A stretch of DNA of 64,000 bases from Candidatus Avedoeria danica (GCA_016703025.1 JADJCV010000004.1:1775412-1839411), one strand, 5' to 3'; positions 4,252 through 28,603 are shown, counted from the first letter of the stretch. Notes: generated from the letters alone by a model not told the origin. Made by a program: numbers and translations.

Positions 4252-4268
4252 GACAATAGGTCGATCCG

Positions 4269-7524: not shown

Positions 7525-7620
7525 CGTTCGTTCTCCTTGTGGTCGGCGGCCGGCACGATGCCCACCGCCCTCGTCCGCGCGCTGCTCGCGCTGCCCGTCG
7601 CCGCTACTCGGCGCCGGGTG

Positions 7621-8598: not shown

Positions 8599-9335
8599 GG
8601 ACGCGCACCGCCGCCCGGTCCATCGTCGGAGCTGCCGTCGGAGCTGCCGTCAGGGCTGCCGTCGGGCCCGCCCCCGGCACCGGTGCCGGCTTCCGCGCCA
8701 TCGTTCGGTCCGCCGCCGTCGAACGCGATCGCTCCGTCGGCCACCTTGTCCGGGCGCAGCGCATCCGGCCCGCCGCCGGCCGGCGGCGCGACACCGCGCA
8801 CGGTGGCCTGGCCGTCGCCGAGCGCCTGGAAGATCTCGGTGCCGCAGTACGGGCACTGCAGCACGCCGCGGCCGGCGATGTCGATCGTCCCACCGCAGTT
8901 CGGACAGGGTTGGACGCCGGCGGCGCCCTCGCGGCTGTAGAGCACGCCTTCGGACCAGTTCACGTAGCCCGAGAACAGGCCGCGGCCGACGGCCTCCAGC
9001 AGGAGGGCCCGCACCGTCTCGCGCGGCGCTTCGAGTTCGGTCACGGCCTCGCCGATCGAGACCTTGCCTTTCGTCAGCACCAGGTTCAACAGCTTTCGCA
9101 GCTGGGCCGCGCGCGCCTGCGCATCCGTGTCGGCGCTGCCGCGGGCGAAGAGGAGCACGGCCATCCCGCCGAGCGGCAGCGTGGCCAGCAGCGCACCGAA
9201 CAGGCCGAGCGCATACCCTCCGCCGGACAGCACGCCGTCGGCCCGAGCGCCGTTCAGCCAGCCGAGCGCCGCCATGAACAGCCCAACGGCCGCCACGCCG
9301 ACGACGATCCCGAGCAGTCGTGCATTCCGCATCAT
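8595..9335 (-). CDS. Membrane protein with C-terminal zinc ribbon (YdjG-like)
   Basis: The start MMRNARLL forms an ATGA overlap with the DUF2207 stop. Two TM helices are followed by CPNCGG...CPYCGTE. Confidence 0.6.
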   Translation of the reverse strand: MMRNARLLGIVVGVAAVGLFMAALGWLNGARADGVLSGGGYALGLFGALLATLPLGGMAVLLFARGSADTDAQARAAQLRKLLNLVLTKGKVSIGEAVTELEAPRETVRALLLEAVGRGLFSGYVNWSEGVLYSREGAAGVQPCPNCGGTIDIAGRGVLQCPYCGTEIFQALGDGQATVRGVAPPAGGGPDALRPDKVADGAIAFDGGGPNDGAEAGTGAGGGPDGSPDGSSDGSSDDGPGGGARP

Positions 9336-11407
9336 CCGAAACCTCCTCCGCCTCCTCCGCCGCCACCGCCACCGCCGCCGCTGAACCCGCCGCCCGACCA
9401 ACCGCCGCCGCCCGAACCGCCCGACCAACCGGAACCGCCGGACGGCGCCGGCTGGCTGCCGAAAACGACGGCGGCGCTCGAGAGCATGGAGGAGAGACTC
9501 CCCGAGAGCGCGGACAACCCGCCCCCGAGGCGATCACTGGCGCCCTGCAGGTCCGGCATGCCGCCCGACGCGCCGTCGCCGGACGGGCCGAGCGGGCCGC
9601 CGCCCATGCGCCCCGAACCGGCGCCGTGGTCGAACGGCCGCGGTCCGCGGCCCCAATCCACCCACGGCCGGCCGCGTGCATCCTGACCGGCCGGAACGTA
9701 CCACGGCGGCGCCGCGGCGTCCACGCGGGCGAACGCCGCGATCCATTGGCGGTCGATACCGAACGCCACCGCGTAGGGCAGGTAGCGATCGAACAGGTCG
9801 CCGGCCGTCTCGAGATGGCCGCGCTGCTGCTCGATGTTGACCAGCCAGTCGCGGAAGGCCCGCCAGCGCGCCGCGGCCTCGGCCCCGGCCGGCGTCTTGC
9901 GCGGCATCGCCGACGCGGTGAGCAGCGCGGCGATGCTGACGATGAGCAGCACCCCCGGCAGGCACATCGCCAGCGGGATCGTCTCGACGAGCAGGATCGT
10001 GGCGACGAACAGGACGATGCTCAAGACGACGCCGCCGATGCCGAGCCCAATGTACTGCCCGCGCGTCTTGTCGGGACGCGCCGTGAACAGGCCGGCGTCC
10101 ACGACGCTCTCGTACAGCTGGCTGTAGAGCGCCGGGAGCTCGCTGTAGAAGGCGTTCTTGAGGTCGGACAGCTTGCGCCGGTCGCTGCGGCCGAAGACCG
10201 CCTCGACGAGCGCCGCTTCGAACTTCGAGAGCGTCGATGGCGCGCCTGCGCTGCCCGCGTCCGGCGCCCGCTCGAACAGGATGTCCTGACGGACGCCGAT
10301 GCCGAGGAACCCGCCCTCGCTGACCTCGACCATCCGCAGCTCGCCGCGCCGTGCCAGGTCGACGAGCGTCGCAAGGACGTCGCGCAGGTGGGCTTCCTCG
10401 TCCAGCAGCGTGCCGACGACGCCGGGCGCGAGGTCGCTCGGCGGCTCGGCCAGGTAGTCGACGCCGAGATCGAACTCCGGGTCGCGGCCGCGCTGGTACC
10501 ACACCCAGTAGACGCCGAACAGGCCGCTGGCCAGCGCGACGACGCTGAGCAGCGCCACGATGAGGTTGAACAGGGCCAGCCAGCCGTCGGCCTGACCGGT
10601 CGACGTCGCGCCGCCGCGGGCCGCGTCGATCTCGGCCTGCTCGTCCACCCGTTCGGCATCGAGGTCGGCCTGGAAGGCGGTCTCGGTGGCCTGAACGTAG
10701 CCGTGCGGCCACTGGCCGCGCACTTCGACGGAGGCGCCGTTCTCGACGTCCTCGACCCGGATCCGCAGCACGCGGTCCGAGACGCGATCGGCCGGGACCG
10801 GCCGCCACGCCGCGTTCGGCCGCGGTTGGACGTAGCCGCTGCCGTCCGTCCAGCCCGGCACGGCGTCCGGCAGCGTGACCGTGATGACGGCGTTTTCCAC
10901 GAGCGGCCGATCGGGCCGGATGACCGTCCACCACAGCTGGTCGCCGCCCTCGTACGCCCGCAGCGCGCCCGTCACGGTGTACTGGACGATGAACCGGGCG
11001 GAGCGCGGCGCCCGGATCTCGGGGAACCACCACTGGACGCGGATCAGGTCGCCGCGTGGCGTCACGCTGAACGTGTTCGGATCGCCGTCGCCTTCGGCGT
11101 ACGGCTGGTCGGGCGCGTCGACCCGGGCCCCGTGGATGCCGGCCGCGCCTTCGCGGGACAGGTCGACGTAGCCGGTCGTGAAAGCGCCCGCGTCGAACGA
11201 CACCGTGATGTCCTCCACCACGTCGAACGTGCCGTCCGGCTGGACGGCGACGTCGACGGCGTAGGTCTGGTAGTGGGCCTGCTTGCTCTGCGCGGACGCG
11301 CGACCGCCACCCGTCCACGCGAGGGCGACGACGGCCACGGTGATCGCGCCAAGGATCCGTCGTCCGATCGTCTGACTTCTCACTTGCCCTCCTCCACGTT
11401 CGGCCAT
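9332..11407 (-). CDS. DUF2207 domain-containing membrane protein (YciQ-like)
   Basis: Signal peptide, extracytoplasmic domain, TM segments and a Gly-rich C-terminal tail, as in the DUF2207 architecture. The GTG at 11383, with GGAGG 5 nt upstream, is the likelier start. Confidence 0.75.
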   Translation of the reverse strand: MAERGGGQVRSQTIGRRILGAITVAVVALAWTGGGRASAQSKQAHYQTYAVDVAVQPDGTFDVVEDITVSFDAGAFTTGYVDLSREGAAGIHGARVDAPDQPYAEGDGDPNTFSVTPRGDLIRVQWWFPEIRAPRSARFIVQYTVTGALRAYEGGDQLWWTVIRPDRPLVENAVITVTLPDAVPGWTDGSGYVQPRPNAAWRPVPADRVSDRVLRIRVEDVENGASVEVRGQWPHGYVQATETAFQADLDAERVDEQAEIDAARGGATSTGQADGWLALFNLIVALLSVVALASGLFGVYWVWYQRGRDPEFDLGVDYLAEPPSDLAPGVVGTLLDEEAHLRDVLATLVDLARRGELRMVEVSEGGFLGIGVRQDILFERAPDAGSAGAPSTLSKFEAALVEAVFGRSDRRKLSDLKNAFYSELPALYSQLYESVVDAGLFTARPDKTRGQYIGLGIGGVVLSIVLFVATILLVETIPLAMCLPGVLLIVSIAALLTASAMPRKTPAGAEAAARWRAFRDWLVNIEQQRGHLETAGDLFDRYLPYAVAFGIDRQWIAAFARVDAAAPPWYVPAGQDARGRPWVDWGRGPRPFDHGAGSGRMGGGPLGPSGDGASGGMPDLQGASDRLGGGLSALSGSLSSMLSSAAVVFGSQPAPSGGSGWSGGSGGGGWSGGGFSGGGGGGGGGGGGGFG

Positions 11408-11410
11408 CCT

Positions 11411-12002
11411 CTACGCCCCCGCCGCCGCACGGTTGCGCCGCGCGACGACGACGAGGATGTCCGCCGGCCGCCGCCGGGTCCGATCGCCGGGGTTCAGCGA
11501 GAACGCGGTCCGCCTCGACCAGCGCCACGCGGACGTCCGGCAGGTGGTGGAGCACGCCCTGGCAGACGACGGCGTCGACCGCGCCGTCGGCCAGCGGTAG
11601 GTGCTCGGCATCGGCGATCAGCGGCCAGACGCCGGCGATTCCGGCCGCGTTCGCCTTGGCGACGGCCTGCTTGAGCATGCCGCGCGACATGTCCAGCGCG
11701 ACGACGGCCGGTCCGGCAGCGGCGACGGGCAGCGTCGTGCGCCCCGTCCCGCAACCGATGTCCAGGACGACGCGCGCGCCGTCCGCCGCCAGGCGCTCCG
11801 CCCACGGCCGTGCCGTCCAGAGCTGCTGGTACGGGGCGAACTCACGGCCGATCAGACGGTCGTAGCGGGCAGCCTCGCGGTCGTGATGGATCGCGTCGCG
11901 GCGCTTCCAGGCGGTTGGGTCGGACGGGACCGGCACGGCGCCGGTGTGCGCGACGGTCGTGCGCTCGGCCGCGCGGCGTCGAGGGGAGGGGGGTTCGATC
12001 AT
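11411..12002 (-). CDS. Class I SAM-dependent methyltransferase (3' end or frame uncertain)
   Basis: Motif I VLDIGCGTG and an acidic motif II are present. The ATG at 12002 forms an ATGA overlap with the rsmD stop. The reading frame loses methyltransferase character after ..VALVEADRVL and then runs into the DUF2207 gene. Confidence 0.45.
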
Positions 12003-12553: not shown

Positions 12554-13576
12554 TCAGCCTTCCGATCCGGCAGCGCGGTGGGCACGATCATCGCCATCGC
12601 CGTTGCCATTTCCATTGCCATTGCCGTCGCCGCCGTCGGCGTCGTCGGCGTCGACCCGCTGCGCCACGGCCGTGACCCACGAGCCGCCGAGAGCCCGGTC
12701 GAGCAACCGGAACAGCGGCTGGGCGACGAGGCGGACCGGGCGGACGTGGAGCACGAAGCGCAGGCTTCGCGCGATCGGCGACGGCAGGCGCTCCTTGGCG
12801 GCCAGCGAGATCGCGAGCGCGGTCAGGAGATAGCTTTCGCTGAGGTACGTCCAGTGCGAGAGCCGGAACCCGGCGTCGGCCAGCGTTCGCTCCAGCGTCG
12901 ACCGGCTGAACACCACCAGGTGCCGCGGCGTGTCCCAGCCCGGCCAGCGCGTGCGCCAGAGCCTGGCCTCCCAGCCGTCGAGAACGGGCGTCGTGACGAC
13001 GAGCCACCCGCCCGGCTTGACGGACGCGGCCACGTGCCGCAGATCGTCGGCCGGATGGTCCAGGTGCTCGACGACGTCCCACAGCGTCGCGACGTCGAAC
13101 GCGGCCGCCGGCAGGTCGGCCCGGTCGACGGTGGTCGACCAGACCGGGATCCCGCGCGCCCGCGCCGCCTCGGCCGCCCACGGCGCCGGCTCGACGCCCG
13201 CGATCACGAGCCCGGCGGTGCGCGCCGCATGAAGAAACGCCCCCGTAGCGCACCCGACGTCCAGCACGCGCCCGCCCGCCCCGGCGAGGCCGCGGACGAG
13301 CGCGACGCGGCGGCGCAGGTCGCGGGCGCGAAACCAGCGGAGCAGCCAGGCGGGACCCTTGCCGCGCCGGACGTAGTCGGGCGGGTAGTAGTCCGCCATC
13401 GCCGCGGGCGCCGGCCGCTCGCGCAGGTAGGTGAGGCCGCAGGACGCGCATCTGGCGTAGCGGAACGTGCCGGGGCCGTCGAACCAGCGGTCGCGGGCGA
13501 CGTGGAGGGGGGTGTGGGCGTCCGTGCGGCAGGCGGGGCACGGGACGGTGATGGGTGTCGGGGCGGGGTGGGTCAT
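12554..13576 (-). CDS. Zinc-ribbon plus class I SAM-dependent methyltransferase domain protein
   Basis: N-terminal CPAC...CASCG ribbon, VLDVGCATG motif I, and VKPGGWLVVT. The C-terminus is a (GN)n low-complexity tail. Confidence 0.7.
   Translation of the reverse strand: MTHPAPTPITVPCPACRTDAHTPLHVARDRWFDGPGTFRYARCASCGLTYLRERPAPAAMADYYPPDYVRRGKGPAWLLRWFRARDLRRRVALVRGLAGAGGRVLDVGCATGAFLHAARTAGLVIAGVEPAPWAAEAARARGIPVWSTTVDRADLPAAAFDVATLWDVVEHLDHPADDLRHVAASVKPGGWLVVTTPVLDGWEARLWRTRWPGWDTPRHLVVFSRSTLERTLADAGFRLSHWTYLSESYLLTALAISLAAKERLPSPIARSLRFVLHVRPVRLVAQPLFRLLDRALGGSWVTAVAQRVDADDADGGDGNGNGNGNGDGDDRAHRAAGSEG
12590..12640. repeat. Hexanucleotide microsatellite (GCCATT-like), about 7 units, encoding the (GN)n tail
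   Basis: Read directly: catcgccattgccattgccatttccattgccattgcc. Confidence 0.6.
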
Positions 13577-13636
13577 GGGGGGTGGATGATACACGGGGGG
13601 TGGGCGCACGGATGCGTGTGCCGCTATGGCCCCGTT

Positions 13637-13719
13637 CTCAGATCACCATTCGTAGACCGCCAGACCACAGTGACCTGCGCCCCGATTGCCGGCGATCTCG
13701 CCTCAGATCACCTGTGATC
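13637..13719. promoter_or_regulatory. Direct repeat CTCAGATCACC (x2) with a GATCACctGTGATC palindrome, 60-140 bp upstream of the minus-strand methyltransferase-rsmD operon
   Basis: Read in the sequence. Candidate operator sites. Confidence 0.3.
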
Positions 13720-15389
13720 CGCAGCCGGACCAACGTTGTCTGAGCGGCCAACCATCTGCCTCCCATGAACGCAGCGCCCACCCGATCCGCATCCCAATCC
13801 CGGCGCGGACGCGCCAGCAGGACTGGGCCCGCGCTTGCACGCGGGGCCCGGCGATTTCCGGTGATCGGAGGTTAGCCCCTCAGTTTGGCGGCCCTTCGGC
13901 CGCCGGGGCAATGCCTTGAGGTCGGCCTTGATGCCGTTGTAGGTGGCAGCGTCGACCGAACCGACTTCCGAGATGTCGTTCACGATGACGACGATCGGCT
14001 GGTCGCTGGTGACGACCGCGGAGCCAAACGAGTTCACCGGCATCGCGTTCGGCGAGTTGCTCGGGAAGAACGTCCAGGCGTTCAACGGCTGGACCACGAC
14101 CTTGCACGCCGCGCCGCAGGAGCTCAGGCCAACGCCCTTGTCATCCGCGAACACGACTTCGATGTTCGCCGGCCCGGTGCCGATGTTCATCACCTGGATG
14201 CCCGTCGTGAACTTCGCCGTCGTGTGACCGCGGCGCGCCAGCGGCAAGGCCACCTTCGTCGCGCCCTGCGCCGCCGGAACCGCGTTGTACGCAGCCGACG
14301 TCTCGGTCAGGTTCTTCGAGTCGTTCACGATCGCCAGGATGTTGCCATCCGACTCGAGCACGGCCGAACCCACGCAGCCCTTCGGCAGCGTCGCCGCCGT
14401 CGGCTGGTAGAACACGTGGCTCGAACCCGCCGGAATGGCCGCCGGGCCCTCCGTGTACGAGTTGCCGGCGCACTCCGCCGAGCCACCGTAGTACTTCGCC
14501 GTCACGTTCACCGGCGCGTTCGTCGGGTTCACGACCGAGATACCGGTCGAGAAGCCCTTCGCCCCGCCCGCGTTCGTCCCCGCCAGCTGCTCCTTGCGGA
14601 TCAGCGGCGCGTACAGCTTCATCGCGGCGCCTTCCGGCGGCACGCCTTCGAACGCGTACACGGCCTTCTGGCTGCTCTCGATGTCGACGAACGACTGGAC
14701 GCCCACGTCCACCGCGCTCGTCACCTTCATCGAACCCAGGAAGCCGCCCGGCGTGTTCGGCTGCACGCCGATGAACGCCGCGTCCTTCGAAAGGTCGAGC
14801 GTCACCGACGAACCCGGCTGCACCTGGTACGTCTTGTTCACCACCGCCGTCGTGTTGCCCTGCGCGAACAGCTCAACGGTCACCGTGGCCACCTGGCCCG
14901 TGTCCGTGTTCTGGATCGACACGAGCGACGTCTGGCCGTAGTACTTGATGACCGACAACGGCACGAACACTTCCTTTGCCCGGCTGAACGTTCGAGTAGA
15001 TCGCCGCAGCGCCCGACGTCGTCCAGTCCGTGCGCGCGATCGCCGCGATCTGGCGGTCGGCGCTGATGATCGCCGCGTACGCGCCGTTCGTCAGCTCCGT
15101 CACCGTCGGCAGGTACATGTTCACCGCGCCGCCCGCCGGTACGTTCGGCCGCGACACCTGGATCGCCGTCACCGCCGACGTGCTCTGCTTGTAGAAGTCC
15201 GCCAACACCGTCGCCGACTGCGTCGCGTCCAGGTTCTGCACCTGGATACCCGTCGCGCCTGCTCCCTGGATCCCGGCCAGGCGGCTGGCGCCACACCGCC
15301 GGCTGCCCACCCTGGAACATCCCGGCCGCGGCCATCGCCACGCCCGCCACCACTCCAACACCGGCCGTCATTACGACGAGCTTCTTCAT
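13708..15389 (-). pseudogene. Secreted repeat-domain (CARDB-like, ~100-aa repeats) protein interrupted by two +1 frame changes
   Basis: AAGGAG sits 10 nt before the ATG at 15389, followed by the signal peptide MKKLVVMTAGVGVVAGVAMAAAG. The repeats then continue in a second frame (..TGIQVQNLDATQ..) and a third (..VSIQNTDTGQ.., ..TGIQVMNIGTGP..). The C-terminal about 70 aa of the last frame look like a wrong-frame readthrough. Confidence 0.55.
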
Positions 15390-15632
15390 CTCGGGTCCGC
15401 TCCTTGTGGATTCCTGTGAGATCGGGTTCGGCACCTCATCGGCGCCTCTGGGGGCCTCGACACCGGATTGCGGTGGAGGCATCCCCACCGACGGGAGCTC
15501 AGTGTAGGCGGCCGATCGGCCGCCGCCCATGGTCCGTGGGGTGCACCGTGGGCCGAATCGGCTACGACTTTCGGTGTATTGCCGAGGGAAAGCCCACGAA
15601 TCGGCGCCTCAACGCCCCGGATTCGGCTGCGA

Positions 15633-16544
15633 TCACGGCGCTTCGATCGTCGCGGTGTCCGTCACGGCCAGCGTGTCCGTCAGGAGGGCGGTGTCCGTCA
15701 GGACGTCGGTCACCGCGGGCTCGTCGTACGCGTCCGGCGCCTCGGGCGTGTAGTCCGACAAGTCGTCGTCGGCGCGATCCGTCGGGCGGCTCTCGAGCAG
15801 CTTCACCTGCGAGTCGGCCATGTAGTACGCGCTGCTGCCGTGATCGGCGATCCGCTGGATCGTCTGGAAGTCCTCGTAGGCGGCGTTGAACCGGCCGAGC
15901 GAGTAGTTCAGCATCGCCCGGTTCTGCCACGCGTCGATGTTGTTGTCGATCGCGATCGCCCGATCGAAGTCCGCCATCGCCTTGACGTTGTCGCCCCGGT
16001 TCTGGTGCGCGAAGCCGCGGTTGCCGAACGCCTGCGAAAGCTGGTCGTTGATCGCGAGCGCTTCGTCCAGCTTCTCGATCGCCGTCACGTAGTCCCCGTC
16101 GTCGATGTACAGCCGGCCGATGTTCGCGATCGCCTCGGCGTAGTCGGGCTTGAGTTCGAGCGCGGCATCGAGGTCCGCCCGCGCCTCGTCGCGCCGGCGC
16201 AGGTTGATGTAGGCCACGGCCCGGTTGTTCAGGACCTCGTAGCGGTTGTAGCCCTCCGGCGACGACGCCTCGGTCAGCTCGAGGGACTTCGTGCAATCGC
16301 CGACGGCCTCGTTGTGGAGCAGGAGCGCGTCGTTGGCGATGCAGCGGTTGGCGTACGCGAACGGCAGGTCGATCCCGCGCTCGATCGCCTTGTCGAACGC
16401 CAGGAGCGCCCGTTCGTTGTCTCCTTGCGCCAGATAGTTCTGCCCCGTGATGAGCGGGCTGCGGAAGGCGGAGCAGCCGGCCGTCAGCAGGGCGATAAGG
16501 ACGGATGAGGCGCTGACGACGCGGCGGATCGAGGGCTGGGTCAA
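15633..16544 (-). CDS. TPR-repeat lipoprotein
   Basis: Lipobox LLTAGC, then multiple TPR units (AYANRCIA.., AYINL.., AIANIG.., AFGNRG..). Confidence 0.75.
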   Translation of the reverse strand: MTQPSIRRVVSASSVLIALLTAGCSAFRSPLITGQNYLAQGDNERALLAFDKAIERGIDLPFAYANRCIANDALLLHNEAVGDCTKSLELTEASSPEGYNRYEVLNNRAVAYINLRRRDEARADLDAALELKPDYAEAIANIGRLYIDDGDYVTAIEKLDEALAINDQLSQAFGNRGFAHQNRGDNVKAMADFDRAIAIDNNIDAWQNRAMLNYSLGRFNAAYEDFQTIQRIADHGSSAYYMADSQVKLLESRPTDRADDDLSDYTPEAPDAYDEPAVTDVLTDTALLTDTLAVTDTATIEAP

Positions 16545-16731
16545 TTCAGGACTCCCGGGGATGGCGCACGCGGACGGAATGCTTCATCGAGCGTGCCGGA
16601 GGAGCGTACTGGAGGAGCGTGCCAGAGGCGTGCGGACGGCGCAATACGCCGAACGTCGTAGCGCGGTCGATCCGCGTCGATCCGGCGATGGGTCCCGGCA
16701 CGTCGAGGGGTCCGATGGTGGTAGTGACCCC

Positions 16732-17652
16732 CTAACCCCCTTCGTCGTCCGGGCGGGCGATCCGAACCCACGCCGTCGCCAACACGAGCCAGCTGACCTC
16801 GACGGCGATCATCCACAACCGCCATGCCACGACGAGCCCGAGCGCCACGGCGCTCGATCCGTACAGTGGCTCGAGGAGGAGGACCATCCCGAGATCCTTC
16901 ACCAGCCCGGTCAGCGGAAGCGGCCCCATCAGGTTGCCGAGCGCCACCGCCAGCGAGCCGATGCCGATCGCGTCCGGCAGGGAAGCCGTCGGGCTCACGG
17001 CGCGCATGAACGCGTACAGCGCCACGCCGGAGAGCATGAGCACGCCGACGCCGCGCGCCAGCCAGAACCGCACGTGGCCGCCGTCGAACGCCGGCAGGGT
17101 CGAGATGGCCGTCCGGCGCCCGGTCAGGCGGCCGCCGAAGGCGACGAGGCGCCGGAACACCACGGGCTGCACCGCCGCAAGGGCGAACGCCGCCACGACG
17201 ACGAGCACCCAGACGCCGACCGGCGGAGCGGACGCCGCCCACGGCAGCGTCGCGCCGTACAGGACGAGGCCGGCGACGCCGAGCACCACCCACTCGATCG
17301 TCGTCGCCGCACCGACGGCCAGCGCATCCGCGCGGCCGTACGCGGCCAGGCGGCCGAGCGGCGTCCAGATCCCGCCGGGCACGACATGCGCCAGCGCCGC
17401 AAGGGCGTAGCGCTGCGCGTGCTGCGCCGGACGCGCCCGCACGCCGAACGCCGCGACGATCCGCCGCCAAGTGTCGACCATCAGGATCGCGCCGGCCGTC
17501 TGGACCGTCCACGTGACGGCGAGCCACCGGGCGTCGAGCCGGAACGCACTCGCCAGCGTGCCCCGCACGCGCCGGAGCTCACCGTACAACCGCACGCCGA
17601 CGACGCCGACGACAACCGCCGCCAAGACGACGCCGGCCGCGAGCCGGAACAT
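16732..17652 (-). CDS. UPF0104 / lysylphosphatidylglycerol-synthase-TM-like (flippase-like) membrane protein
   Basis: 307-aa polytopic protein beginning MFRLAAGVVLAAVVV.., typical of the UPF0104 family. The same frame continues upstream without a stop, so the start is inferred. Confidence 0.65.
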   Translation of the reverse strand: MFRLAAGVVLAAVVVGVVGVRLYGELRRVRGTLASAFRLDARWLAVTWTVQTAGAILMVDTWRRIVAAFGVRARPAQHAQRYALAALAHVVPGGIWTPLGRLAAYGRADALAVGAATTIEWVVLGVAGLVLYGATLPWAASAPPVGVWVLVVVAAFALAAVQPVVFRRLVAFGGRLTGRRTAISTLPAFDGGHVRFWLARGVGVLMLSGVALYAFMRAVSPTASLPDAIGIGSLAVALGNLMGPLPLTGLVKDLGMVLLLEPLYGSSAVALGLVVAWRLWMIAVEVSWLVLATAWVRIARPDDEGG

Positions 17653-17768
17653 CCGCCAACGGCGATCCCGGAGGCGCCGAACGGGGAACGCCGCGCCGGC
17701 CCCGGATTGCCCGTACGCGGCGCCCGCGTCGGTGCCGCCGGTCTCGACGCCGGCCGCCCCGGCGCGCT

Positions 17769-18745
17769 TCAGTCCAGCACCACGCGCAGCCCGTTGGGCG
17801 GCGCCGGGTACATGTGGCGGTGTTCGTACAGCCACTGCGGGTGGGCGACGACGGCCTCGCCGTGTGCGTGCGCGGCACACGCGATGAACTCGCGCTTGGC
17901 GGCGAGCCACGGCACCGGCAGCGCGCTGACGCCGTTCAGCACGGCGTTGCCCGTCCCCCTTGACGAGCGAGCGCACATTGCGGCCGCGGTACGTCGGCCA
18001 GACGTTGGCCGTCGCGAGCTCGGCCACGCGGTAGTGGCTGGCCTCGAGCAGCCGCCGCACCTCGACGGGCGCGTACTCGCGCTGGTGGCGGCCGTAGATC
18101 CCGTAGCCGGAGTACGGAAACTCCGTCGGGCGGTTGAAGAACAGGTTCACGAGGCGCTTGATGTTGATGAAGTTCGGCACGGTGATGAACATCAGCCCGC
18201 CCGGCGCCAGGACCCGGTGGCTCTCGGCCAGCGTGTGGCTCGGGTTGTAGCCGAGGTGCTCGAGCGTCTCCATGAACAAGACCGCGTCGAAGTGGTCGTC
18301 CGGGTACGGGAAGGCATCGCGCTCGATGTTGAAGATCCGGACGTCGATCGTCAGGCGGGACGGCGGCCCGCCGAGGGCCGGCACGTCGAGGACGACGCGG
18401 CCGGACGGCTGCCGCGGCGCCTCGCCCGGCCACGACCCGGCCCTCGACGCTGACGGCGTCGATCTCGGCGCCGAACGCGCTGTGGACGAGCGTCGTGAAG
18501 AAGTACGGCGCCGCGCCGAGCTCGAGGATCCGCAGCGGCCGGCCGACGACGGGCGGCAGATGGCGATCGATCATCCGCAGGCTGAGCGCGGCCGACTTGC
18601 CGTGCAGCCAGGCGTACTTCTCGAGGTCGGCGCGCGCCCGGACCAACAGGTCGCGGTCGAGCGTGTCCTCGACGATCCGGACCTGGCCGAGCACCGCCGC
18701 AAGCGCGGCCGGATCCTTGGCCAGCCGCAGCACCTCAGCGTTCAT
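17769..18745 (-). pseudogene. Class I SAM-dependent methyltransferase split across three reading frames
   Basis: N-terminus (MNAEVLRLAK...ILELGAAPYFF..) in one frame, core (FPYPDDHFDAVLFMETLEHL..APGGLMFITVPN) in a second, and C-terminus (..PVPWLAAKREFIACAAHAHGE..VVLD*) in a third. The ATG at 18745 overlaps the GT2 stop (ATGA). Confidence 0.55.
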
Positions 18746-19813
18746 CGTCGCCCATCCCTTCCATATGTGCCGCTTGGGTCGGCGACGTCCGCTGACCCGA
18801 TGGCGGTCGGCCAGGCCGACGCCTGCCGCGACCCTACGTCGCGGCAGCCCGCCGCGAGCCCGCGCACGTAAGCCGCGCCGGTCGCCGGACGGCCGCCCAG
18901 GAGCGACCGCGCCAGCGTCAGCCCGAGGCTGACGATCCGATACGCGACGACGACCGCGCGGTGCGCGCCGCGGCTGTGGGCCGCATAGTACGGCACGCTC
19001 GAGCGCGCCAGCAGGTACGCCTGCCCCGGCGAGCCGACGCCGGTGGACGCCGCGACGTGGTGGGCGATGCGCGCGCTCGGCACGTGCGCCAGGCGGAAGC
19101 CGGCCGCGCGGGCGCGCAGGCAGAGATCGTGGTCCTCGTAGTAGACCCGGAAGCGCTCGTCGAACAGGCCGATCCGCTCCCAGAGGGCGCGGCGGACGAG
19201 ATGCAGCAGCCGTTCGCCCAGTCGATGTCGTACGGATGGGGGGAAGGCGGGTCGGCCGTCGTGTCGTGCGCGTCGAGGGTCCAGGGTCGCCGGAATCCGG
19301 CCGATGGCCAGACGGCGCCCGGCGGATCGAAGTACGTGACGGTCGGCGCGACGAGGCCGATCGGACCGCGACGCGGCGCACGGCCGGGCAGCGGCGCGGC
19401 GGCGAGCTCGGCCACGGCGGCGCCGGCGTACAGCTCCGTCAGCAGGGACGGCGCGGCGACGGTGTCGTTGTTCACGAGCAGCGTCCAGGCCGCACCTTCG
19501 TCCAACGCCCGCCGGATCCCGACGTTCGCGCCGGCCGCGAAGCCGAGATTCTCGGGGAGGGCCACGAGCACGACATGCGGAAACGCCGCGCGCCCGCCTC
19601 GGCCGAGCCGTCCGTCGACCCGTTGTCGACGACGACGATGCGGTGTTCGACACCGGCCGGGACGGACATCGCTTCCAGGCTCGCAAGGCACGCCAGCGTC
19701 AGCTCGCGGCGGTTCCAGTTCAGGACGATCGACGCCACGACGACATCGGGCGGCTCGGTGCGCATGATGGGTCGTGTCACCGTCGCCAGAGAGCGGATGA
19801 AGGAGTCGTTCAT
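18742..19813 (-). pseudogene. Family 2 glycosyltransferase split across three reading frames (two -1 shifts)
   Basis: N-terminus ..ASIVLNWNRRELT..IVVVDNGSTDGS in one frame, middle ..FPHVVLVALPENLGFAAGANVG..LVNNDT..YDIDWANGCC in a second, and C-terminus LVRRALWERIGLFDERFRVYYEDHDL.. in a third. Confidence 0.55.
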
Positions 19814-19866
19814 CGAAGCCGGCCGTGCATCCGCGGTCCCTCACCCGGCGCGCAGTGGCGCGCCTG

Positions 19867-20039
19867 CCCTCTCCCGCGGGGGCGGGAGAGGGCGGTCCAG
19901 CCGGGGGCCGACGCGTCGATCCACTCGATCCCCCACGCAATGGATGGATCCTTTCTCCCGCCCCCATGGGAGAAACGCGGTACCCAAACGCGCCTGCCGG
20001 CGCGTTTGGGGCCCAATGGTGGCAGCGCCGCAGGCGCTG
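19867..20039. repeat. Four consecutive perfect or near-perfect hairpins between the rSAM and GT2 genes
   Basis: CCCTCTCCCGC/GCGGGAGAGGG (19867-19892), TTTCTCCC/GGGAGAAA (19952-19975), CCCAAACGCGCC/GGCGCGTTTGGG (19983-20010), and CAGCGCC/GGCGCTG (20023-20039). Confidence 0.5.
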
Positions 20040-20082
20040 ACGGATAGAGGGAGAGTTCGGCGGGCATGACTTGACCGGCTCT

Positions 20083-21178
20083 CTAGAACCCTTGACGATC
20101 GAAGAACAGCTTGAACATCGCCACCTGATCGCGCAGGCTGCGGCTGCGGTAGCAGTTCAACAGGCACGGCGCCTTGCACGGCTTCATCTTGTCGCGCACG
20201 TCCTGGGCGTGGGCCGACTCCCAGATCTGGCGGGGGTGGGTCGTCCGGACGTTGCCGACGAGGTCATCGACGGTGTAGCAGAAGTTCACGTCGCCGCGCG
20301 GGCCGATGTTGAACGTGCTGTAGCGGACCATGCACTCGTCCGGTCGCGGGTGGCTGGAGGGGCTCGCGGAAGTAGTGCTGCATCGCCACGAGGTGCTCAT
20401 CGGGGTTCCAGACGGCTTTGCCGGCGCGCTTGAGTTCGCGCACGGCCTCAAGGGCATCGTGGACCGCGTCGGGGTCGCGCGGCCAGTGTGGGTTGCGCTC
20501 GAACCATGCCGGGTCCATCCCCTCGTCCGTCGCGAACGTCGGATACAGCGGCTGGAACAGGACGCGGTCGACGCCAAGGCCGAGGGCCCACTCGGCGGTG
20601 GCAGCCATGTCGGCGTACGTCTCCTCCATGATGATCGACGCCACGCCGAGAACGATGCTCGGGTCGCGGCGCAGGTTCAGCACGGCCTCGACGCAGCGGT
20701 CGTAGAGCGGCACGCCCCGGCAGCGGTCGTGCACCTCACGGTTGAGCGTGTCGATCGAGATCGACAGGAAGTCGGGTCCGACCTCGCGAATGCGGTCGCA
20801 GGCCGACGGCGTGAGGTACATCCCGTTCGTCGACATCTTCGTCTTGATGCCGATGTCGCGGCAGTGCGCCAGGATGTCGAACATCCCGCGCTTCTGGAAC
20901 GGCTCGCCGCCGGAGATGACGATGAAGAACGGCCCGAGCCAGGAGCGCAGGTCGTCGAGGACGCGCTTCCATTCGTCCACGTCCAACTCGTTGTGCGCCT
21001 GGAGCGTCCAGATGTCGCACATCGTACAGCGCGCGGCGCACGCGTCGGTGATGATCACCGATACCTTGTCGGGCTTGCCGAGCGGGCGATCGAGGCTGTA
21101 GCTTGCCTTCAGACGCAGGTGGTTCAAGCCCTGCGTGGCGGCGAACTGCACATCGGCCAGCTGGATATCTGTGCGCAT
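20083..21178 (-). pseudogene. Radical SAM / SPASM-domain enzyme (anSME-like size) with one +1 frame change
   Basis: N-terminal CAARCTMC (CX3CX2C) and the radical-SAM core lie in one frame. The C-terminal SPASM-like ..ECMVRYSTFNIGPRGDVNFCY..KPCKAPCLLNC.. lies in another. The junction is near 20300. Confidence 0.55.
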
Positions 21179-21311
21179 GGTGTGACCCCGTCAGAGGCGC
21201 CGGTTCATCGAACCAGCCGGTCGAACATCGTGGGCGATCATCGTCGCCGCGCATTGAGACAGCGGAAACGACCGCCGCGGGTCCGCATGGCACGGACCGG
21301 CGTGATCCCGG

Positions 21312-21341
21312 TCATCGTGCCCCGGACTCGTCCGGGGCACG
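21312..21341. terminator. Perfect 14-bp inverted repeat ATCGTGCCCCGGAC-tc-GTCCGGGGCACGAT immediately 3' of the GT2 stop
   Basis: Read directly from the sequence. It lies between the GT2 stop (21343) and the rSAM start (21178) on the minus-strand transcript. Confidence 0.4.
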
Positions 21342-21342
21342 A

Positions 21343-22197
21343 TCATAGCGCCGGATCGGCCGCACCGAGGCACCATGCCAGCTTGGTGGCGTACACCGCC
21401 GGCCACGTCAGCGGGTAGCGCCGCCCCGGGCGACCCGCACCGTACAGCCGCGCCGTCGCCACCGCCGCGATGGCGGGTGCCAGCGCGTACAGCGCGAGCG
21501 GTCGGTAGATCCACGTCACACCGTCGAAGGCCGTCGGATGGCGCTGTCGCACGCCGACCATCCACCGCCCGCTCATGTACCAGTGGCGCCACATGTCGGC
21601 GGCCGTCGTCCGCGTCGGCCGGTGGAAGATCCACGCCGCGGGGTCGAGGAACGGTCGATGGCCGGCCGCCGCCAGCCGGATCGTCCAGTCGATGTCCTCG
21701 CCGCAGCGCAAACCGGGGTCCATCGCACCGACGTCGTCGACCGCCGTGGCCCGCACGCTCAGGTTCAGCGTCGGCAGGAAGGGGCGCGGGCCGGCGGGCA
21801 GGTGCGCGTCCACGTTGTGGAACATGGACAGGTTGTCCGCCAGTTGCCAGTACGGCCGCGGATCGTAGAGGACGGCGCCGCCCACGACGGTCTCGCCGGC
21901 GGCGTGCCGGGCGAGGTGGGCGGCCAGCCAGCCGGGTTCGGCGACGCAGTCCGCATCGAGGAAGACGTAGACGTCCCCGCTCGCCGCCTGGATGCCGCGG
22001 TTCCGCGCCCCGGCCGGCCATTCCGGCCGCTCGGTGTACAAGAATCGCACCCGCGGTTCGCCCGCCAGGCGCCCCGGACCGTCGCGGCCGACGACGATGA
22101 CCTCGTGCGCCCGCGCGCCCGCCTGGGCGAACACGCTCGCCACGGCGCGGTCGACGACGGGCGAGTCCAGGTTCGGGATGATGACCGAGGCCTTCAT
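21343..22197 (-). CDS. Family 2 glycosyltransferase
   Basis: MKASVIIPNLDSP.., DAD motif (FLDADC). ATGA overlap with the GT4 stop at 22194-22197. Confidence 0.75.
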   Translation of the reverse strand: MKASVIIPNLDSPVVDRAVASVFAQAGARAHEVIVVGRDGPGRLAGEPRVRFLYTERPEWPAGARNRGIQAASGDVYVFLDADCVAEPGWLAAHLARHAAGETVVGGAVLYDPRPYWQLADNLSMFHNVDAHLPAGPRPFLPTLNLSVRATAVDDVGAMDPGLRCGEDIDWTIRLAAAGHRPFLDPAAWIFHRPTRTTAADMWRHWYMSGRWMVGVRQRHPTAFDGVTWIYRPLALYALAPAIAAVATARLYGAGRPGRRYPLTWPAVYATKLAWCLGAADPAL

Positions 22198-23474
22198 CGC
22201 GCCGTCCCGGGCGCCGGCGCGCGATCGACGGCAGCGGCCTCGCCGACGCCCGCGGCCCCGTCGCCAACGCCCGCGTCGCCGACCAAGCCGACGAGCGCCG
22301 CCACGTACGCCGCCCAGCCGATCCGGCCCCGCGCCGCGACGGACCCCGCGCGCAGCCGCGCCGCCAGCCCTGGCTCCTCGCACAGCCGCACCACGGCCGC
22401 GGCCAGCGCCCGGGCATCCCCCGGCGGCACGACGAGCCCGGCGTCGCCGTCGACGACGACCTCGGGCAGCCCGCCGACATCCGTCACGATCATCGGGACG
22501 CCGTGCTCGATCGCCAACGTCAGGACGCCGCTCGAGGTGGCGGCGCGGTAGGGCAGGACGACGGCGTCGGCGGACGCGAACAACGGGGCCACTTCCTCGT
22601 TCTGCACGTAGCCGTCGCGGAGCGTCACCGCGTCGCCGAGTCCGAGCCGATCGGCCTGTGCGCGGAACGCATCGGCCCTCTGCCAGAACTCGCCGGCGAC
22701 GACGAGCCGCACGCCCGGCACGGCCTCGCGGGCGATGGCGAGCGCGTCGATGAGGACATCCAAGCCCTTGTACGGGCGGACGAGGCCGAAGAAGAGGAGC
22801 GTCGGCGCCGGCCCGATCGGCAGCGGTCGAACTTCATCGGGGGCGGCATCGCCTGGCGCGGTGGCGTCGAGCGCGGCATCGCCGGGCATGGCGCCGTCCG
22901 CGCCGTCGCCCGCCAGGTGGTGGAGCGGCAGCGCGGCGCGCGCCACGGCGCCCGGCATCCGCGCCCGCTCGCCGACGATGCCCTCCAGGACGGCGACGAG
23001 CGGCGTCGCGTGGACGAGCCAGCGGTCGCCGCGGCGGAGCGCGAGCGCGGTCAGCCAACGGGCCAACCGGCCGGGCGCGTCGTGCGGCAGGACATTGTGG
23101 CAGATCAGCACGATCGGCGGGCGCCGGCCGCGCCGGCCGAGGAGGGCGCTGAAGCCGACGACGAACGGGGCGAAGAACGGCACCCACCAGACGAGGAGAA
23201 CGGCATCCGGCCGTGCGGCGCGCACGCGGCGGGCGACGGCGGGCCAGCCGATCGGCCAGAGCGGCGCGATGATCCGTTCGGCCGGAACGCGCACCGGCTG
23301 TTCGGACGGGTCGATGACGGTCCGGCCCGGGAAGAGCCAAGCGGGGTAGAGGCTGCGAAAGGTCAGCGTCGTGACCTCGTGGCCGGCACCGGCGAGCGCC
23401 CGCGCCAGCAGGGCGGTGTGCTGGGCGATCCCGCCACGATACGGCCACACCGGTCCGATCAGGACCCAGCGCAT
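22194..23474 (-). CDS. Glycosyltransferase family 4 (GT-B, GT1/GT4-type)
   Basis: N-terminus MRWVLIGPVWPYRGGIAQH.. and a C-terminal EX7E-like region (LPYRAATSSGVLTLAIEHGVPMIVTDVGGLPEVV). Confidence 0.75.
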   Translation of the reverse strand: MRWVLIGPVWPYRGGIAQHTALLARALAGAGHEVTTLTFRSLYPAWLFPGRTVIDPSEQPVRVPAERIIAPLWPIGWPAVARRVRAARPDAVLLVWWVPFFAPFVVGFSALLGRRGRRPPIVLICHNVLPHDAPGRLARWLTALALRRGDRWLVHATPLVAVLEGIVGERARMPGAVARAALPLHHLAGDGADGAMPGDAALDATAPGDAAPDEVRPLPIGPAPTLLFFGLVRPYKGLDVLIDALAIAREAVPGVRLVVAGEFWQRADAFRAQADRLGLGDAVTLRDGYVQNEEVAPLFASADAVVLPYRAATSSGVLTLAIEHGVPMIVTDVGGLPEVVVDGDAGLVVPPGDARALAAAVVRLCEEPGLAARLRAGSVAARGRIGWAAYVAALVGLVGDAGVGDGAAGVGEAAAVDRAPAPGTAR

Positions 23475-23491
23475 CAGGCGGTCGACGCGGT

Positions 23492-24127
23492 CTAGGGCTG
23501 GTCCAGCCGGAAGCCGTAGCCCCGGATGGTCACCACATAGCTGTGCCGGGCGTCGTGCTCGGCCAGGCGCTGCCGGCAGCGCTTGACGAGAGCGTCGATC
23601 GAATCGTCGCTCACGCCGTCCCGCTCGGTCTCGGGCCAGACGGCGCCGACGATCGACTCGCGCGGCACCGGCCCGCCGTCGGCGTCGAGGAGGACCTTGA
23701 TCAGCCCGAACTGCTGTGCCGAGAGCGGCGGCGCCAGCACCTGGCCGTTCACGAAGACGTGCATCGTCTCGGGGTCGATCCGGATGCCGCGACCGGAGAA
23801 AGCGAGCGGCGCGGTGGCGTCGGCATCCACGTACCACAGCTTGTAGCGGGCCGAGATCGAGATGTCGTCACCGTCCTTCAGCGGTCGCGGTTCGCCGGTC
23901 ACGGGCTGGCCGTTCAGCCATGTCCCGTTCTTGCTGCCGTTGTCCACGAGGACGTAGCCGCGGCCGCTGCGGCGCACGGCGGCGTGCTGACGCGACACCG
24001 AGCGATCCGGCAAGCAGATCGCACACTCGGCGTCCCGGCCGATGACGATGACCTCGCGCCCGGCCAGCGGCCAGGTGCGCTCGGCAGCGCCATCGCGGAG
24101 CACGATCATCGCCCCTTCTTCTGCCAC
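23492..24127 (-). CDS. FHA-domain protein with C-terminal OmpR/PhoB-type winged-helix DNA-binding domain
   Basis: FHA signature (VIVIGRDAECAICLPDRSVSRQHAAV...GSKNGTWLNG) plus a trans_reg_C-like C-terminus (..VKRCRQRLAEHD..YVVTIRGYGFRL). Alternative start at 24109. Confidence 0.7.
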   Translation of the reverse strand: MAEEGAMIVLRDGAAERTWPLAGREVIVIGRDAECAICLPDRSVSRQHAAVRRSGRGYVLVDNGSKNGTWLNGQPVTGEPRPLKDGDDISISARYKLWYVDADATAPLAFSGRGIRIDPETMHVFVNGQVLAPPLSAQQFGLIKVLLDADGGPVPRESIVGAVWPETERDGVSDDSIDALVKRCRQRLAEHDARHSYVVTIRGYGFRLDQP

Positions 24128-24202
24128 GGTGCCCTCCCGCGACGACTATAGCACGACCGCGGGGCCGCATCGGCCGACGCGGAGCGCGCCGGGAATCGCG
24201 CC

Positions 24203-24237
24203 GCACGCGCTTGACCCGCCGGCCGCCGTCGCCCTAC
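24203..24237 (+). promoter_or_regulatory. Sigma-70-like promoter (-35 TTGACC, 17-nt spacer, -10 TACCCT) for the Ser/Thr kinase gene
   Basis: Hexamers read in the divergent intergenic region between the FHA gene and the kinase gene. Confidence 0.3.
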
Positions 24238-24246
24238 CCTGCCCGT

Positions 24247-25335
24247 ATGCGCAACCTCGAGCCCGACATCGTGCTTCGCGACCGCTACCGCTTGGTCGAG
24301 CTCGTCGGTCAAGGCGGTGCCGGCGCGGTCTGGCGTGCGGACGACCTGCGTTTGGCCGGCCGCGTCACCGCCGTCAAGGCGATCCTGCCGGACGTCGGCT
24401 CGGCGGCCGACCGGGCCGATCGCCAGGCACAGTTCCACCGCGAGGCCAGCATGTTGGCGCGCCTCGACCATCCGGCCCTGCCCAAGGTCTCGGACTATTT
24501 CGAGGACGACGGGACGGACTTCCTGGTCATGGACTACGTCGACGGGCCCGACCTTCGCCAGGTCGTCGATGCCGCGCTGGCGGCGGGCGAGCTCCTCGAC
24601 GTCGAGCGTGTGCTCGGCTGGGCCGATCAGCTCCTCGACGCCGTCGCCTACCTGCACGCCCAGTCGCCGCCCGTGCTGCACCGCGACATCAAGCCGGCGA
24701 ACATCAAGCTCGTGGCGGGCGAACGGATCAAGCTCGTCGACTTCGGCCTCGTCAAGGCGATGGACCCGGCCGACCCCCGGACGCTCACCGTGGCGCGCGG
24801 CGTCGGATCGCTGCCCTACACGCCGCTCGAGCAGTATGCCGGCGACACCGGCCACACGGACGTCCGGGCCGACCTCTACGCCGTCGGCGCGACGCTGTAC
24901 CACCTCATGACCGGCCGGCCGCCGGACACCGCCCAGGACCGCTTCCTGCTGCCCAATGCGCTCACCCGCCCGCGCCGGCTCAACCCCGACGTGCCGTCGC
25001 GCGTCGAGTCCGCCATCCTGACGGCGATGGCGCTCCACCCCGAGCGCCGGCCGCCGACGGCCGAGGCGCTGCGCGCGCTCCTCGTCGGCGACGCGCCGGT
25101 CCTCGGCAGCGTCGAGCTCGGTACGGCGGGGCTGGCGTGGCGGCAGGCGATCTGGGACAACGCCGGCCTGATCGCGCTCGTCGCGCTGCTCGTGTTGCTC
25201 ACCGTCGTCGCGACCTGGCAGGCGACCGCCGCGAGCGCGCCGGCCGCGGCGCCGACGGCAAGCGCTGGATCCACCGCCACCGCACCGATCGCCACGCCGA
25301 CGGGGCCAGCGGCAGCAGCGCCAGCAGGAAGCTGA
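24247..25335 (+). CDS. Hanks-type Ser/Thr protein kinase with C-terminal TM anchor
   Basis: Gly loop GQGGAGAVW, VAVK-like lysine, HRDIKPANI catalytic loop, DFG, and SLPYTPLEQ. A TM helix lies near the C-terminus. Confidence 0.8.
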   Translation: MRNLEPDIVLRDRYRLVELVGQGGAGAVWRADDLRLAGRVTAVKAILPDVGSAADRADRQAQFHREASMLARLDHPALPKVSDYFEDDGTDFLVMDYVDGPDLRQVVDAALAAGELLDVERVLGWADQLLDAVAYLHAQSPPVLHRDIKPANIKLVAGERIKLVDFGLVKAMDPADPRTLTVARGVGSLPYTPLEQYAGDTGHTDVRADLYAVGATLYHLMTGRPPDTAQDRFLLPNALTRPRRLNPDVPSRVESAILTAMALHPERRPPTAEALRALLVGDAPVLGSVELGTAGLAWRQAIWDNAGLIALVALLVLLTVVATWQATAASAPAAAPTASAGSTATAPIATPTGPAAAAPAGS

Positions 25336-27967: not shown

Positions 27968-28603
27968 GGTGGGCAAGGATAGGGAATCCGCGGCCGAACG
28001 CCAGCGCCGGCCGCGCGGGGCGGTCGGGCGCCGACGCCGTGTCGGCCGTCGGACGCGACCGCACGACCCGGTTGACAGAATGGCCCGCGGCATGTTAATG
28101 TAGTTGTAACTCGCACGCTCGCACGGCGGCCGACGAAGGGTTGCGACAACGCCCTTCACCGAGTTGTGCGCGTGGACCTGAGGGCCGACTCGGGGTCGTT
28201 TGGCGGTCGAGCCGGCCCAACGACAGTCTACGGAGGTCATCCGGCCCGTGTGCGCAGCGACCGGTGTTATGCATGAAGAGAGGCGCCTGGCGACGAAGTC
28301 CTGGGTCTGCCCCTGCCCGAGCTCTGACGGGACCGCGCGCCGGCGCCTCTCGCCCGTGCATAACGGTGTTGGGAAATTGGGCGTTACGCACGGTTGTCGA
28401 TTGCGACTTCATTCCTGGACGATCCCCCATGCGTAGGGAGTGACGCAATACGGCCGATAGACACGGACCGCGGAGCGGCCCGTCTTCTCAGTTCGGGTCT
28501 CCTCGGTGCGATTGCGTTGAGGAGCGACGAGTCCGGCAATGGCGGGCTGTCAGAGATTGCCGTTTCCGCTGCCCCGGACGGCGAACGCGATGCGGAGGAA
28601 CAA

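Follow-up and report, generated by a model that had tools for sequence, protein, structure and literature searches.

The window analysed here is a 64,000-nucleotide stretch of a 2,918,923-nt contig of the MAG Aved_18-Q3-R54-62_BATAC.767 (JADJCV000000000, Ardenticatenales), obtained from sample Aved_18-Q3-R54-62 of BioProject PRJNA629478. The features considered, most of them belonging to a cluster of surface-glycan and other cell-surface genes, are listed below with the single-base changes they contain. All are on the minus strand.

11413..12002, minus strand, UbiE-like methyltransferase gene (291 aa in five conspecific assemblies), outside the interval first flagged and in the same anomalous stretch
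13796..13870, minus strand, 3' flank of the secreted-protein gene, with private 1-nt indels at 13867 and 13796 and six private substitutions
13915..15389, minus strand, secreted four-module beta-sandwich protein, 490 aa, a two-copy gene, with 1-nt insertions at 15291 (+G, A to GG) and 14977 (+A)
15454..15496, minus strand, non-coding leader of the secreted-protein gene, with three private 1-nt indels at 15496 (+T), 15486 (G5 to G4) and 15454 (C6 to C5)
15633..16544, minus strand, TPR lipoprotein, 303 aa, intact, its protein sequence identical to that of a conspecific genome
16732..17652, minus strand, polytopic membrane protein, 306 aa, intact and free of private indels
17769..18745, minus strand, class I SAM methyltransferase, intact length 324 aa, in three pieces through 1-nt insertions at 18443 (+G, GG to GGG) and 17959 (+G, GGGG to GGGGG)
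18742..19813, minus strand, GT2 glycosyltransferase, intact length 357 aa, in three pieces through 1-nt deletions at 19593/19594 (a T missing between Gs) and 19200/19201 (-C, CC to C)
20083..21178, minus strand, radical SAM (rSAM)/SPASM gene, intact length 364 aa, with a 1-nt insertion at 20362 (+C, CCC to CCCC)

The coding phase switches inside these minus-strand genes, as seen in a GC3 frame plot and in a 7-state GC3 HMM. Pfam matches are divided in the same manner: Radical_SAM (1-166) lies in one frame of the rSAM gene and SPASM in another, parts of the GT2 profile (3-43 and 53-103) and of GT2_3 (164-212) are found in different frames, and the middle fragment of the methyltransferase holds the second half of Methyltransf_11 (profile positions 49-95). 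When intact orthologues were used as tblastn queries, the rSAM protein was spread over two frames of the window and the GT2 and methyltransferase proteins over three each; the same queries matched the comparison loci L001, L002 and L003 in one frame each. Nucleotide alignments gave the exact positions of the seven coding lesions, one in the rSAM/SPASM gene and two in each of the genes for GT2, the methyltransferase and the 490-aa secreted protein.

The sequence-only reading of this DNA had proposed that four genes of the cluster are split over several reading frames, and all of these approaches bear it out. Its junction estimates fall within 65 nt of the aligned lesions, and it gave the gene limits and the direction of the shifts (+1/+1, -1/-1 and a single +1) correctly. 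The two interleaved genes that it described as intact do have uninterrupted frames. Two of its names were not upheld. The 306-aa membrane protein, called flippase-like, has no match in Pfam or NCBIfam, and a YbhN/UPF0104-like name is carried by one homologue only (JGI). The secreted protein, called CARDB-like, has no Pfam or NCBIfam match to that or any other family; its modules of about 115 aa have their best fold matches among TM1070/ASRT-type beta-sandwiches.

Four GenBank proteins annotated on the same contig correspond exactly to the broken ORFs of the window; locus tags IPG72_10555 and IPG72_10575 are given for two of them. MBK6769429.1 is the N-terminal piece of the rSAM protein (304 aa), without SPASM. 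MBK6769426.1 is the C-terminal piece of GT2 (113 aa), the sole part of this protein kept in GenBank. MBK6769425.1 is a 550-aa chimera, in which the middle piece of the methyltransferase reads through into the next gene, that of the membrane protein. MBK6769422.1 is a 418-aa read-through fragment of the secreted protein.

Several lesions lie beyond those noted earlier: a lost stop codon, a damaged terminator, the three indels of the 5'-UTR and an internal deletion in the UbiE-like gene. The secreted ORF extends to 13708 because its stop codon TAG reads AAG at 13915-13917. The intrinsic terminator (~13815-13830) has a GC stem and a T7-8 tract in contigs L025 and L031; in the window the T tract is gone and the stem is short of one G. 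The deletion is private, 284 nt long and out of frame, located at 11497/11498 with CGCGT(T)C microhomology. Both the stop-codon substitution at 13917 and this deletion may be true strain differences.

The conspecific set consists of short-read MEGAHIT, SPAdes, JGI and Logan contigs and one long-read MAG. L025, which is the same contig as L047, is the closest genome to the window; L001, L002, L003 and L008 were also used as comparison loci. Private indels were scored over the ~46.4 kb of the window covered by at least two conspecific assemblies. The conspecific assemblies that cover the lesions are 99.3-99.8% identical to the window, and all four genes are intact in them. One of them, GCA_963852785.1, encodes rSAM (364 aa), GT2 (357 aa), methyltransferase (324 aa), membrane protein (306 aa), TPR (303 aa) and secreted protein (490 aa). 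The ten single-base indels of 14977-20362 set the window apart from all of the 6-13 conspecific contigs that cover each of them. Relative to L025, it carries seven frameshifts and one stop loss as disabling mutations, and the six sites covered by L001 and L008 agree. The rSAM, GT2 and methyltransferase genes are also single-frame in four related species where covered. Matches in the genome-collection scan came from other species only, at no more than 93% identity, and the metagenome scan gave one contig, belonging to the 93% species; the lesions were found in no other contig of the genome and metagenome collections searched.

The indels are strongly clustered. All 13 private 1-nt indels, some of them non-coding, lie in 13796-20362, that is in 6.6 kb of the 46.4 kb compared, whereas the 70 private substitutions are spread across the whole 46.4 kb (Fisher p = 1.7e-6). 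The conspecific comparison revealed no private indels in 1-11497, 20363-28745 or 45266-64000. The segment 28.7-45.3 kb, outside that comparison, is covered in part by the GC3 HMM, with L001 up to 31.1 kb, and the HMM gave no frameshift signature there. The ten indels of 14977-20362 are all of 1 nt; seven of them alter a run of at least two bases, the others being single Ts at 19593 and 15496 and the change of A to GG at 15291. Three of the ten lie in the non-coding leader, and the indel process is therefore not limited to coding sequence. No common sequence or methylation-like motif was apparent by eye in the contexts of the sites.

After frame correction, the three enzyme genes show no sign of relaxed selection. 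The dN/dS values against L001 are 0.032 for rSAM, 0.089 for the methyltransferase and 0.239 for GT2, compared with 0.13-0.20 for the intact neighbours, and the frame-corrected sequences of the three genes have no in-frame stops. When changes on the lineage of the window were polarised with L003, 50 were synonymous and six non-synonymous. Compared with L025, the three genes together contain five indels and only two substitutions in 3.1 kb (Fisher p = 3e-7). If indels make up at most ~20% of neutral mutations, five of them should be accompanied by no fewer than 18 non-synonymous changes; the probability of six or fewer when 18 are expected is 0.001.

On the basis of these sequence comparisons, the frameshifts are most probably residual consensus errors in one unpolished stretch of an R9.4.1 MAG with low coverage; the stretch spans ~13.8-20.4 kb and may begin as early as 11.5 kb. 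We prefer this explanation to pseudogenes or phase variation because, among the assemblies compared, only this Nanopore metagenome assembly of low coverage has the splits. The sequence-only reading had left three options side by side, and it is the second, poor consensus with homopolymer indels, that stands; pseudogenization and phase variation are disfavoured. The indels are mostly of one base, in short G/C runs, in coding and non-coding sequence alike and without accompanying substitutions, which fits an unpolished long-read consensus. The assembly was built with CANU, then Racon, medaka r941 twice and Racon once with Illumina reads, and its coverage is limited: npcov 18.39 (Nanopore R9.4.1) and ilmcov 11.05 (Illumina) (PMC8012365, Supplementary Data 3). 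In R9.4.1 consensus sequences, gene calls are broken up by remaining homopolymer indels, and short-read polishing is required for bins with coverage below 40x (PMC9262707).

The window resembles the R9.4.1 homopolymer indels described by Sereika et al. 2022 (PMC9262707; the IDEEL-type truncated-protein signature) in its 1-nt indels, mostly in short G/C runs, with abutting ORFs, in its origin from a CANU/medaka MAG at 18x that was polished with Illumina reads at only 11x, and in that the changes are private to this assembly and not seen in short-read or newer long-read assemblies of the species. It differs in that the indels are confined to 6.6 kb, the other ~40 kb compared having none that are private, and in that some changes are unrelated to homopolymers. 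Two of the seven coding indels (the T lost at 19593 and A to GG at 15291) are of this latter kind, and the stop-codon substitution and the microhomology-flanked deletion are atypical of Nanopore errors; these count against an origin by error. So does the lack of any indel over the 1.8 kb of the two interleaved intact genes, which is marginally unexpected at a uniform local error rate (P ~0.06).

Polishing would have left the stretch of ~13.8-20.4 kb uncorrected, probably where local read support was poor. The stretch adjoins both a 1.47-kb gene present in two copies and a junction that is IS-prone and varies among strains; the reads behind its consensus were therefore probably few or of mixed strain origin. 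Such a local drop in coverage or mixture of strains has to be assumed, since polishing failed here and yet worked in 40 kb of flanking sequence with the same GC content. In the organism itself, the GT4-GT2-rSAM/SPASM-GT2-methyltransferase-membrane protein-TPR-secreted protein locus is most likely intact, as it is in all its relatives.

Genuine and very recent pseudogenization, by which the Avedøre strain would have inactivated its surface-glycan operon and the secreted protein through real frameshifts, selection being lifted after the first of them, seems improbable to us. The lesions do strike functionally linked genes of one minus-strand cluster, next to a strain-variable and IS-prone junction; the stretch includes mutation-like, non-homopolymer lesions (the stop loss, the loss of the terminator T tract and the 284-nt microhomology deletion); and the private SNPs indicate that the window represents a distinct strain. 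The explanation nevertheless fails because the conspecific and related assemblies are intact, selection is not relaxed and an indel to substitution ratio of 5:2 is implausible for decay. Three of the four genes have two lesions each and yet no premature stop substitution, the indels are just as dense in the non-coding leader and trailer, and the low-coverage R9.4.1 source is one in which such errors are expected.

Decaying surface-polysaccharide loci are known from the O-antigen and capsule genes of Yersinia pestis and Shigella, and multi-hit pseudogenes from Mycobacterium leprae. Recent pseudogenes usually have one lesion each, and old multi-hit ones carry many substitutions, stops and deletions. 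The window is like these cases in having several frameshifted genes of a glycan pathway with intact neighbours. It is unlike them in that hardly any substitutions accompany the indels, of which there are up to two per gene, in that the signatures of purifying selection are strong, and in that no second genome shares any of the lesions.

Slightly less probable again is a real and localised burst of +/-1 indels that has just silenced the glycan operon and the adjacent, abundant secreted protein in one activated-sludge Ardenticatenales strain. The neighbouring IS hot spot and two-copy gene could have provoked it, for example through recombination or error-prone repair. Such an event would be multi-hit and indel-only, without substitutional decay.

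A chimeric consensus, in which strains or the two paralogous copies were blended and polishers added indels where the haplotypes disagree, is very unlikely. In its favour, the secreted gene of the window lies in the context of copy A and yet has 4-5 mismatches to copy B against ~17 to copy A of L025. The 11.5-13.7 kb part is also only 95-98.7% identical among conspecific assemblies, and the short-read contigs of six assemblies end at the secreted gene. The rSAM, GT2 and methyltransferase genes, however, are single-copy in the loci examined and near-identical among strains (two substitutions in 3.1 kb), and a polisher would thus meet few haplotype differences there that could mislead it.

Phase variation by slipped-strand mispairing, or programmed frameshifting at the ribosome or during transcription, is scarcely credible for this cell-surface locus. 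Most of the indels do alter the length of a mononucleotide run, but these tracts measure only 1-5 nt at the coding junctions, well short of the 7-8 nt or more that is typical of contingency loci, and the longest run of the region (G6 at 19238) is unaffected. At each site, the 6-13 conspecific contigs all show one and the same in-frame length, and the sites are scattered in gene bodies, twice per gene. Surface-glycan genes are often phase-variable in other bacteria, and the contingency loci of Campylobacter, Haemophilus and Neisseria include glycosyltransferase and methyltransferase genes with poly-G/C tracts of at least 8 nt. The window shares with them surface-glycan genes in which the frame is set by the length of G/C runs, and differs in its short mid-gene tracts without length polymorphism. 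The orthologues are single ORFs, in conspecific assemblies and, for rSAM, GT2 and the methyltransferase, in the four related species where covered; the split architecture is not conserved and there is therefore no conserved recoding site.

With consensus error as the preferred explanation, the frame disruption is very likely not a real biological feature, as far as the assembled sequences allow this to be judged. Its significance is then mainly that of a quality flag: part of the 'high-quality' public MAG JADJCV000000000 would hold uncorrected indels, and at least four GenBank proteins, the rSAM piece, the GT2 stub, the methyltransferase-membrane protein chimera and the read-through fragment, would be misleading. 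Inference of a loss of glycan modification, of gene fusions or of pseudogene load from this MAG would likewise mislead. If the lesions were true, they would record the shutdown of a surface-glycan pathway in a filamentous wastewater bacterium through indels alone, an unusual process that the evidence makes unlikely. An intact version of the locus is present in GCA_963852785.1.

The G+C content of the window is about 72 per cent, which fills all frames with long spurious ORFs; the true coding phase was therefore sought through third-position GC (GC3), using a sliding GC3 plot and a seven-state GC3 HMM. These analyses assign 13.7–21.2 kb wholly to the minus strand, with changes of coding phase inside four genes that are not accompanied by a stop/start boundary. 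The genes of this region, with the seven coding 1-nt lesions, are as follows.

20083–21178, minus strand, radical SAM (rSAM)/SPASM enzyme; lesion at 20362
18742–19813, minus strand, GT2 glycosyltransferase; lesions at 19593 and 19200
17769–18745, minus strand, methyltransferase; lesions at 18443 and 17959
16732–17652, minus strand, membrane protein of 306 aa; intact, among the broken genes
15633–16544, minus strand, TPR lipoprotein of 303 aa; intact, among the broken genes
13915–15389, minus strand, secreted protein; lesions at 15291 and 14977

Pfam places Radical_SAM (1–166) and SPASM in separate frames of the rSAM gene. The three frames of the GT2 gene carry Glycos_transf_2 3–43, then 53–103, then Glyco_tranf_2_3 164–212, and the second half of Methyltransf_11 falls in the middle one of the three methyltransferase fragments. 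GC3 phase switches and Pfam frames thus confirm that four genes are split across frames, as the sequence-only reading had described; it was essentially right on the gene limits, on where the junctions lie and on the direction of each shift, and the interleaved membrane protein and TPR lipoprotein genes are intact, as it said.

Scanning a genome collection with the rSAM fragment yielded syntenic loci from Ardenticatenales/Anaerolineae MAGs. Locus L001 is about 93 per cent identical to the window over 15.3–31.1 kb, and L002 and L003 about 80–88 per cent; L008, of the same species as L001, came from a metagenome scan. In L001, L002 and L003, the rSAM (364 aa), GT2 (approx. 320–358 aa) and methyltransferase (approx. 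324 aa) genes occupy one frame each, versus two, three and three in the window. Alignment with L001 and L008 resolved the lesions to single bases and revealed no net frameshifting indel in the coding sequence of 21.3–31.1 kb. Once the frame is restored, the three enzyme genes contain no in-frame stop and their dN/dS values against L001 are 0.032 (rSAM), 0.089 (methyltransferase) and 0.239 (GT2), the intact membrane and TPR genes giving 0.196 and 0.126. With L003 as outgroup, 50 synonymous and six non-synonymous codon changes are assigned to the window lineage in these three genes; neither dN/dS nor the polarised changes give any sign of relaxed selection in them. In the window, as in its conspecifics, a segment of some 300 nt (19782–20082) separates the rSAM stop from the GT2 core. 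It is missing from L001 and L008, where GT2 follows rSAM almost directly; the GT2 N-terminus varies between species.

The conspecific assembly GCA_963852785.1 (loci L025, L036, L041 and L047) is 99.3–99.8 per cent identical to the window and has all the genes intact: rSAM (364 aa), GT2 (357), methyltransferase (324), membrane protein (306), TPR (303) and secreted protein (490). The same genes are also intact on independent short-read contigs from several wastewater metagenomes (ENA MEGAHIT and SPAdes, JGI, Logan). The interval 14977–20362 holds ten 1-nt indel sites, and at each of them no covering conspecific contig agrees with the window (6–13 per site, L025 and L047 being the same contig). 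Seven of the ten lengthen or shorten a run of at least two bases by one base; three of the ten belong to the non-coding leader of the secreted gene, whose 3′ flank holds further indels. Private differences were scored over the 46.4 kb for which two or more conspecific assemblies give coverage: the 70 private substitutions are spread throughout, and all 13 private 1-nt indels fall within 13796–20362, while 1–11497, 20363–28745 and 45266–64000 are free of private indels (indels versus substitutions, affected stretch versus controls, Fisher p = 1.7e-6). Against L025, the three enzyme genes show five indels and two substitutions (Fisher p = 3e-7).

The split genes are very probably an assembly artefact, resulting from uncorrected long-read consensus errors. 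This explanation is preferred because the indels are one-base and run-associated regardless of coding status, are private to one low-coverage R9.4.1 assembly and come without accompanying substitutions, in genes otherwise strongly constrained. The source MAG (Aved_18-Q3-R54-62_BATAC.767, JADJCV000000000, Ardenticatenales) has coverages of 11.05 (Illumina) and 18.39 (Nanopore) (Supplementary Data 3, Singleton et al. 2021, PMC8012365), and was assembled using CANU with corMinCoverage=0, Racon, two rounds of medaka (r941 model) and one Illumina Racon round (PMC8012365). In R9.4.1 assemblies, leftover homopolymer indels fragment gene calls, and bins below 40x require short-read polishing (PMC9262707). 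Four GenBank products from the source contig, derived from the broken genes, are misleading.

13708–14964, MBK6769422.1 (IPG72_10555), 418 aa; letter for letter the truncated secreted-protein ORF of the window, with a 71-residue read-through tail
16732–18384, MBK6769425.1, 550 aa, 'methyltransferase domain-containing'; chimera in which the middle piece of the methyltransferase runs on into the membrane protein, exact window ORF
18742–19083, MBK6769426.1, 113 aa; GT2 C-terminus, exact window ORF
20264–21178, MBK6769429.1, 304 aa; rSAM without SPASM, exact window ORF

Real pseudogenization of the surface-glycan genes and the secreted protein is unlikely, as each gene would have to be hit twice while gaining hardly any substitutions. 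If indels make up no more than about 20 per cent of neutral mutations, then 18 or more non-synonymous changes should accompany five indels; six at most are observed (Poisson P = 0.001). Three lesions unlike Nanopore errors help it slightly. The stop of the secreted gene (13915–13917) is AAG in the window versus TAG in L025 and in L031, a further comparison locus. The intrinsic terminator at approximately 13796–13870, a GC stem with T7–8 in both loci, lacks one stem G and the T tract in the window, and this surrounding stretch holds 14 private differences in about 250 nt. At 11497/11498, a private out-of-frame deletion of 284 nt truncates a UbiE-like methyltransferase (approx. 11413–12002, minus strand; 291 aa in five conspecific assemblies). 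Its ends have a common CGCGT(T)C microhomology, with five private substitutions within 30 nt; either a genuine deletion in this strain or a misassembly could explain it. Phase variation or programmed frameshifting is most improbable, and each fails its defining tests: the coding-junction runs are just 1–5 nt, conspecifics show no tract polymorphism and the orthologues are single-frame. Of the three options originally offered, poor local consensus is therefore retained as the best explanation, and the biologically interesting readings, pseudogenization and phase variation, are not supported.

Searching protein sequences with the reconstructed secreted protein as query recovered P0001, a 490-aa protein that is 100 per cent identical to it and is encoded on many contigs; the cluster of P0001 also includes the 418-aa MBK6769422.1. 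The gene has two near-identical genomic copies (window 13918–15389, minus strand; L025 and a further locus, L026, both 10001–11473), whose homology runs exactly from the ATG to the last sense codon. Copy A adjoins the TPR/glycan cluster, and copy B is flanked by an aldehyde dehydrogenase on one side and ABC permeases on the other. The window copy has context A and a sequence nearer to copy B (4–5 mismatches) than to copy A (approx. 17), which points to gene conversion within the pair; the encoded surface protein is probably abundant. In four related species and two conspecific assemblies, the contigs, most of them short-read, all end within the first 170 nt or so of the gene. In the adjacent sequence, GCA_963852785.1 carries an IS cluster of about 9.5 kb (L025 11730–21270), not found in the window, inserted at approximately 13611–13660 and encoding an IS256-type transposase (Transposase_mut), a 761-aa GEVED-domain protein, an IS3-type (rve) transposase and an IS66 transposase. 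This insertion marks the junction beside the secreted gene as an insertion hot spot, and identity among strains is only 95–98.7 per cent over 11.5–13.7 kb. We infer that the consensus errors stay local owing to poor read support near the two-copy gene and this strain-variable junction: the error stretch adjoins a 1.47-kb gene with two near-identical copies, and low or mixed-strain read support there would leave Nanopore errors unpolished.

The secreted-protein family numbers 232 proteins or more, about 490 aa long and mostly metagenomic; apart from PF18986 in a few of them, they have no Pfam domain. The AlphaFold model (alignment A1) is all-beta (pLDDT 87, pTM 0.86), and Foldseek matches its modules to TM1070 (1nc7) and the Anabaena sensory rhodopsin transducer (2ii8) with probability 1.0. 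The earlier label 'CARDB-like' thus finds no support from Pfam, and a TM1070/transducer-type fold is predicted instead.

Other strain differences come without indels or in frame. The 21 private substitutions at 9770–10652 (about 900 nt of a DUF2207 gene) and the six within about 140 nt at 26048–26183, both without indels, resemble short tracts acquired by recombination with a divergent strain. In-frame length differs among low-complexity repeats of the strains at 12598–12626, where a repeat encodes (GNG)n at the C-terminal end of a 351-aa methyltransferase-like gene, and at 8663, where the 12-nt repeat unit is GACGGCAGCCCT.
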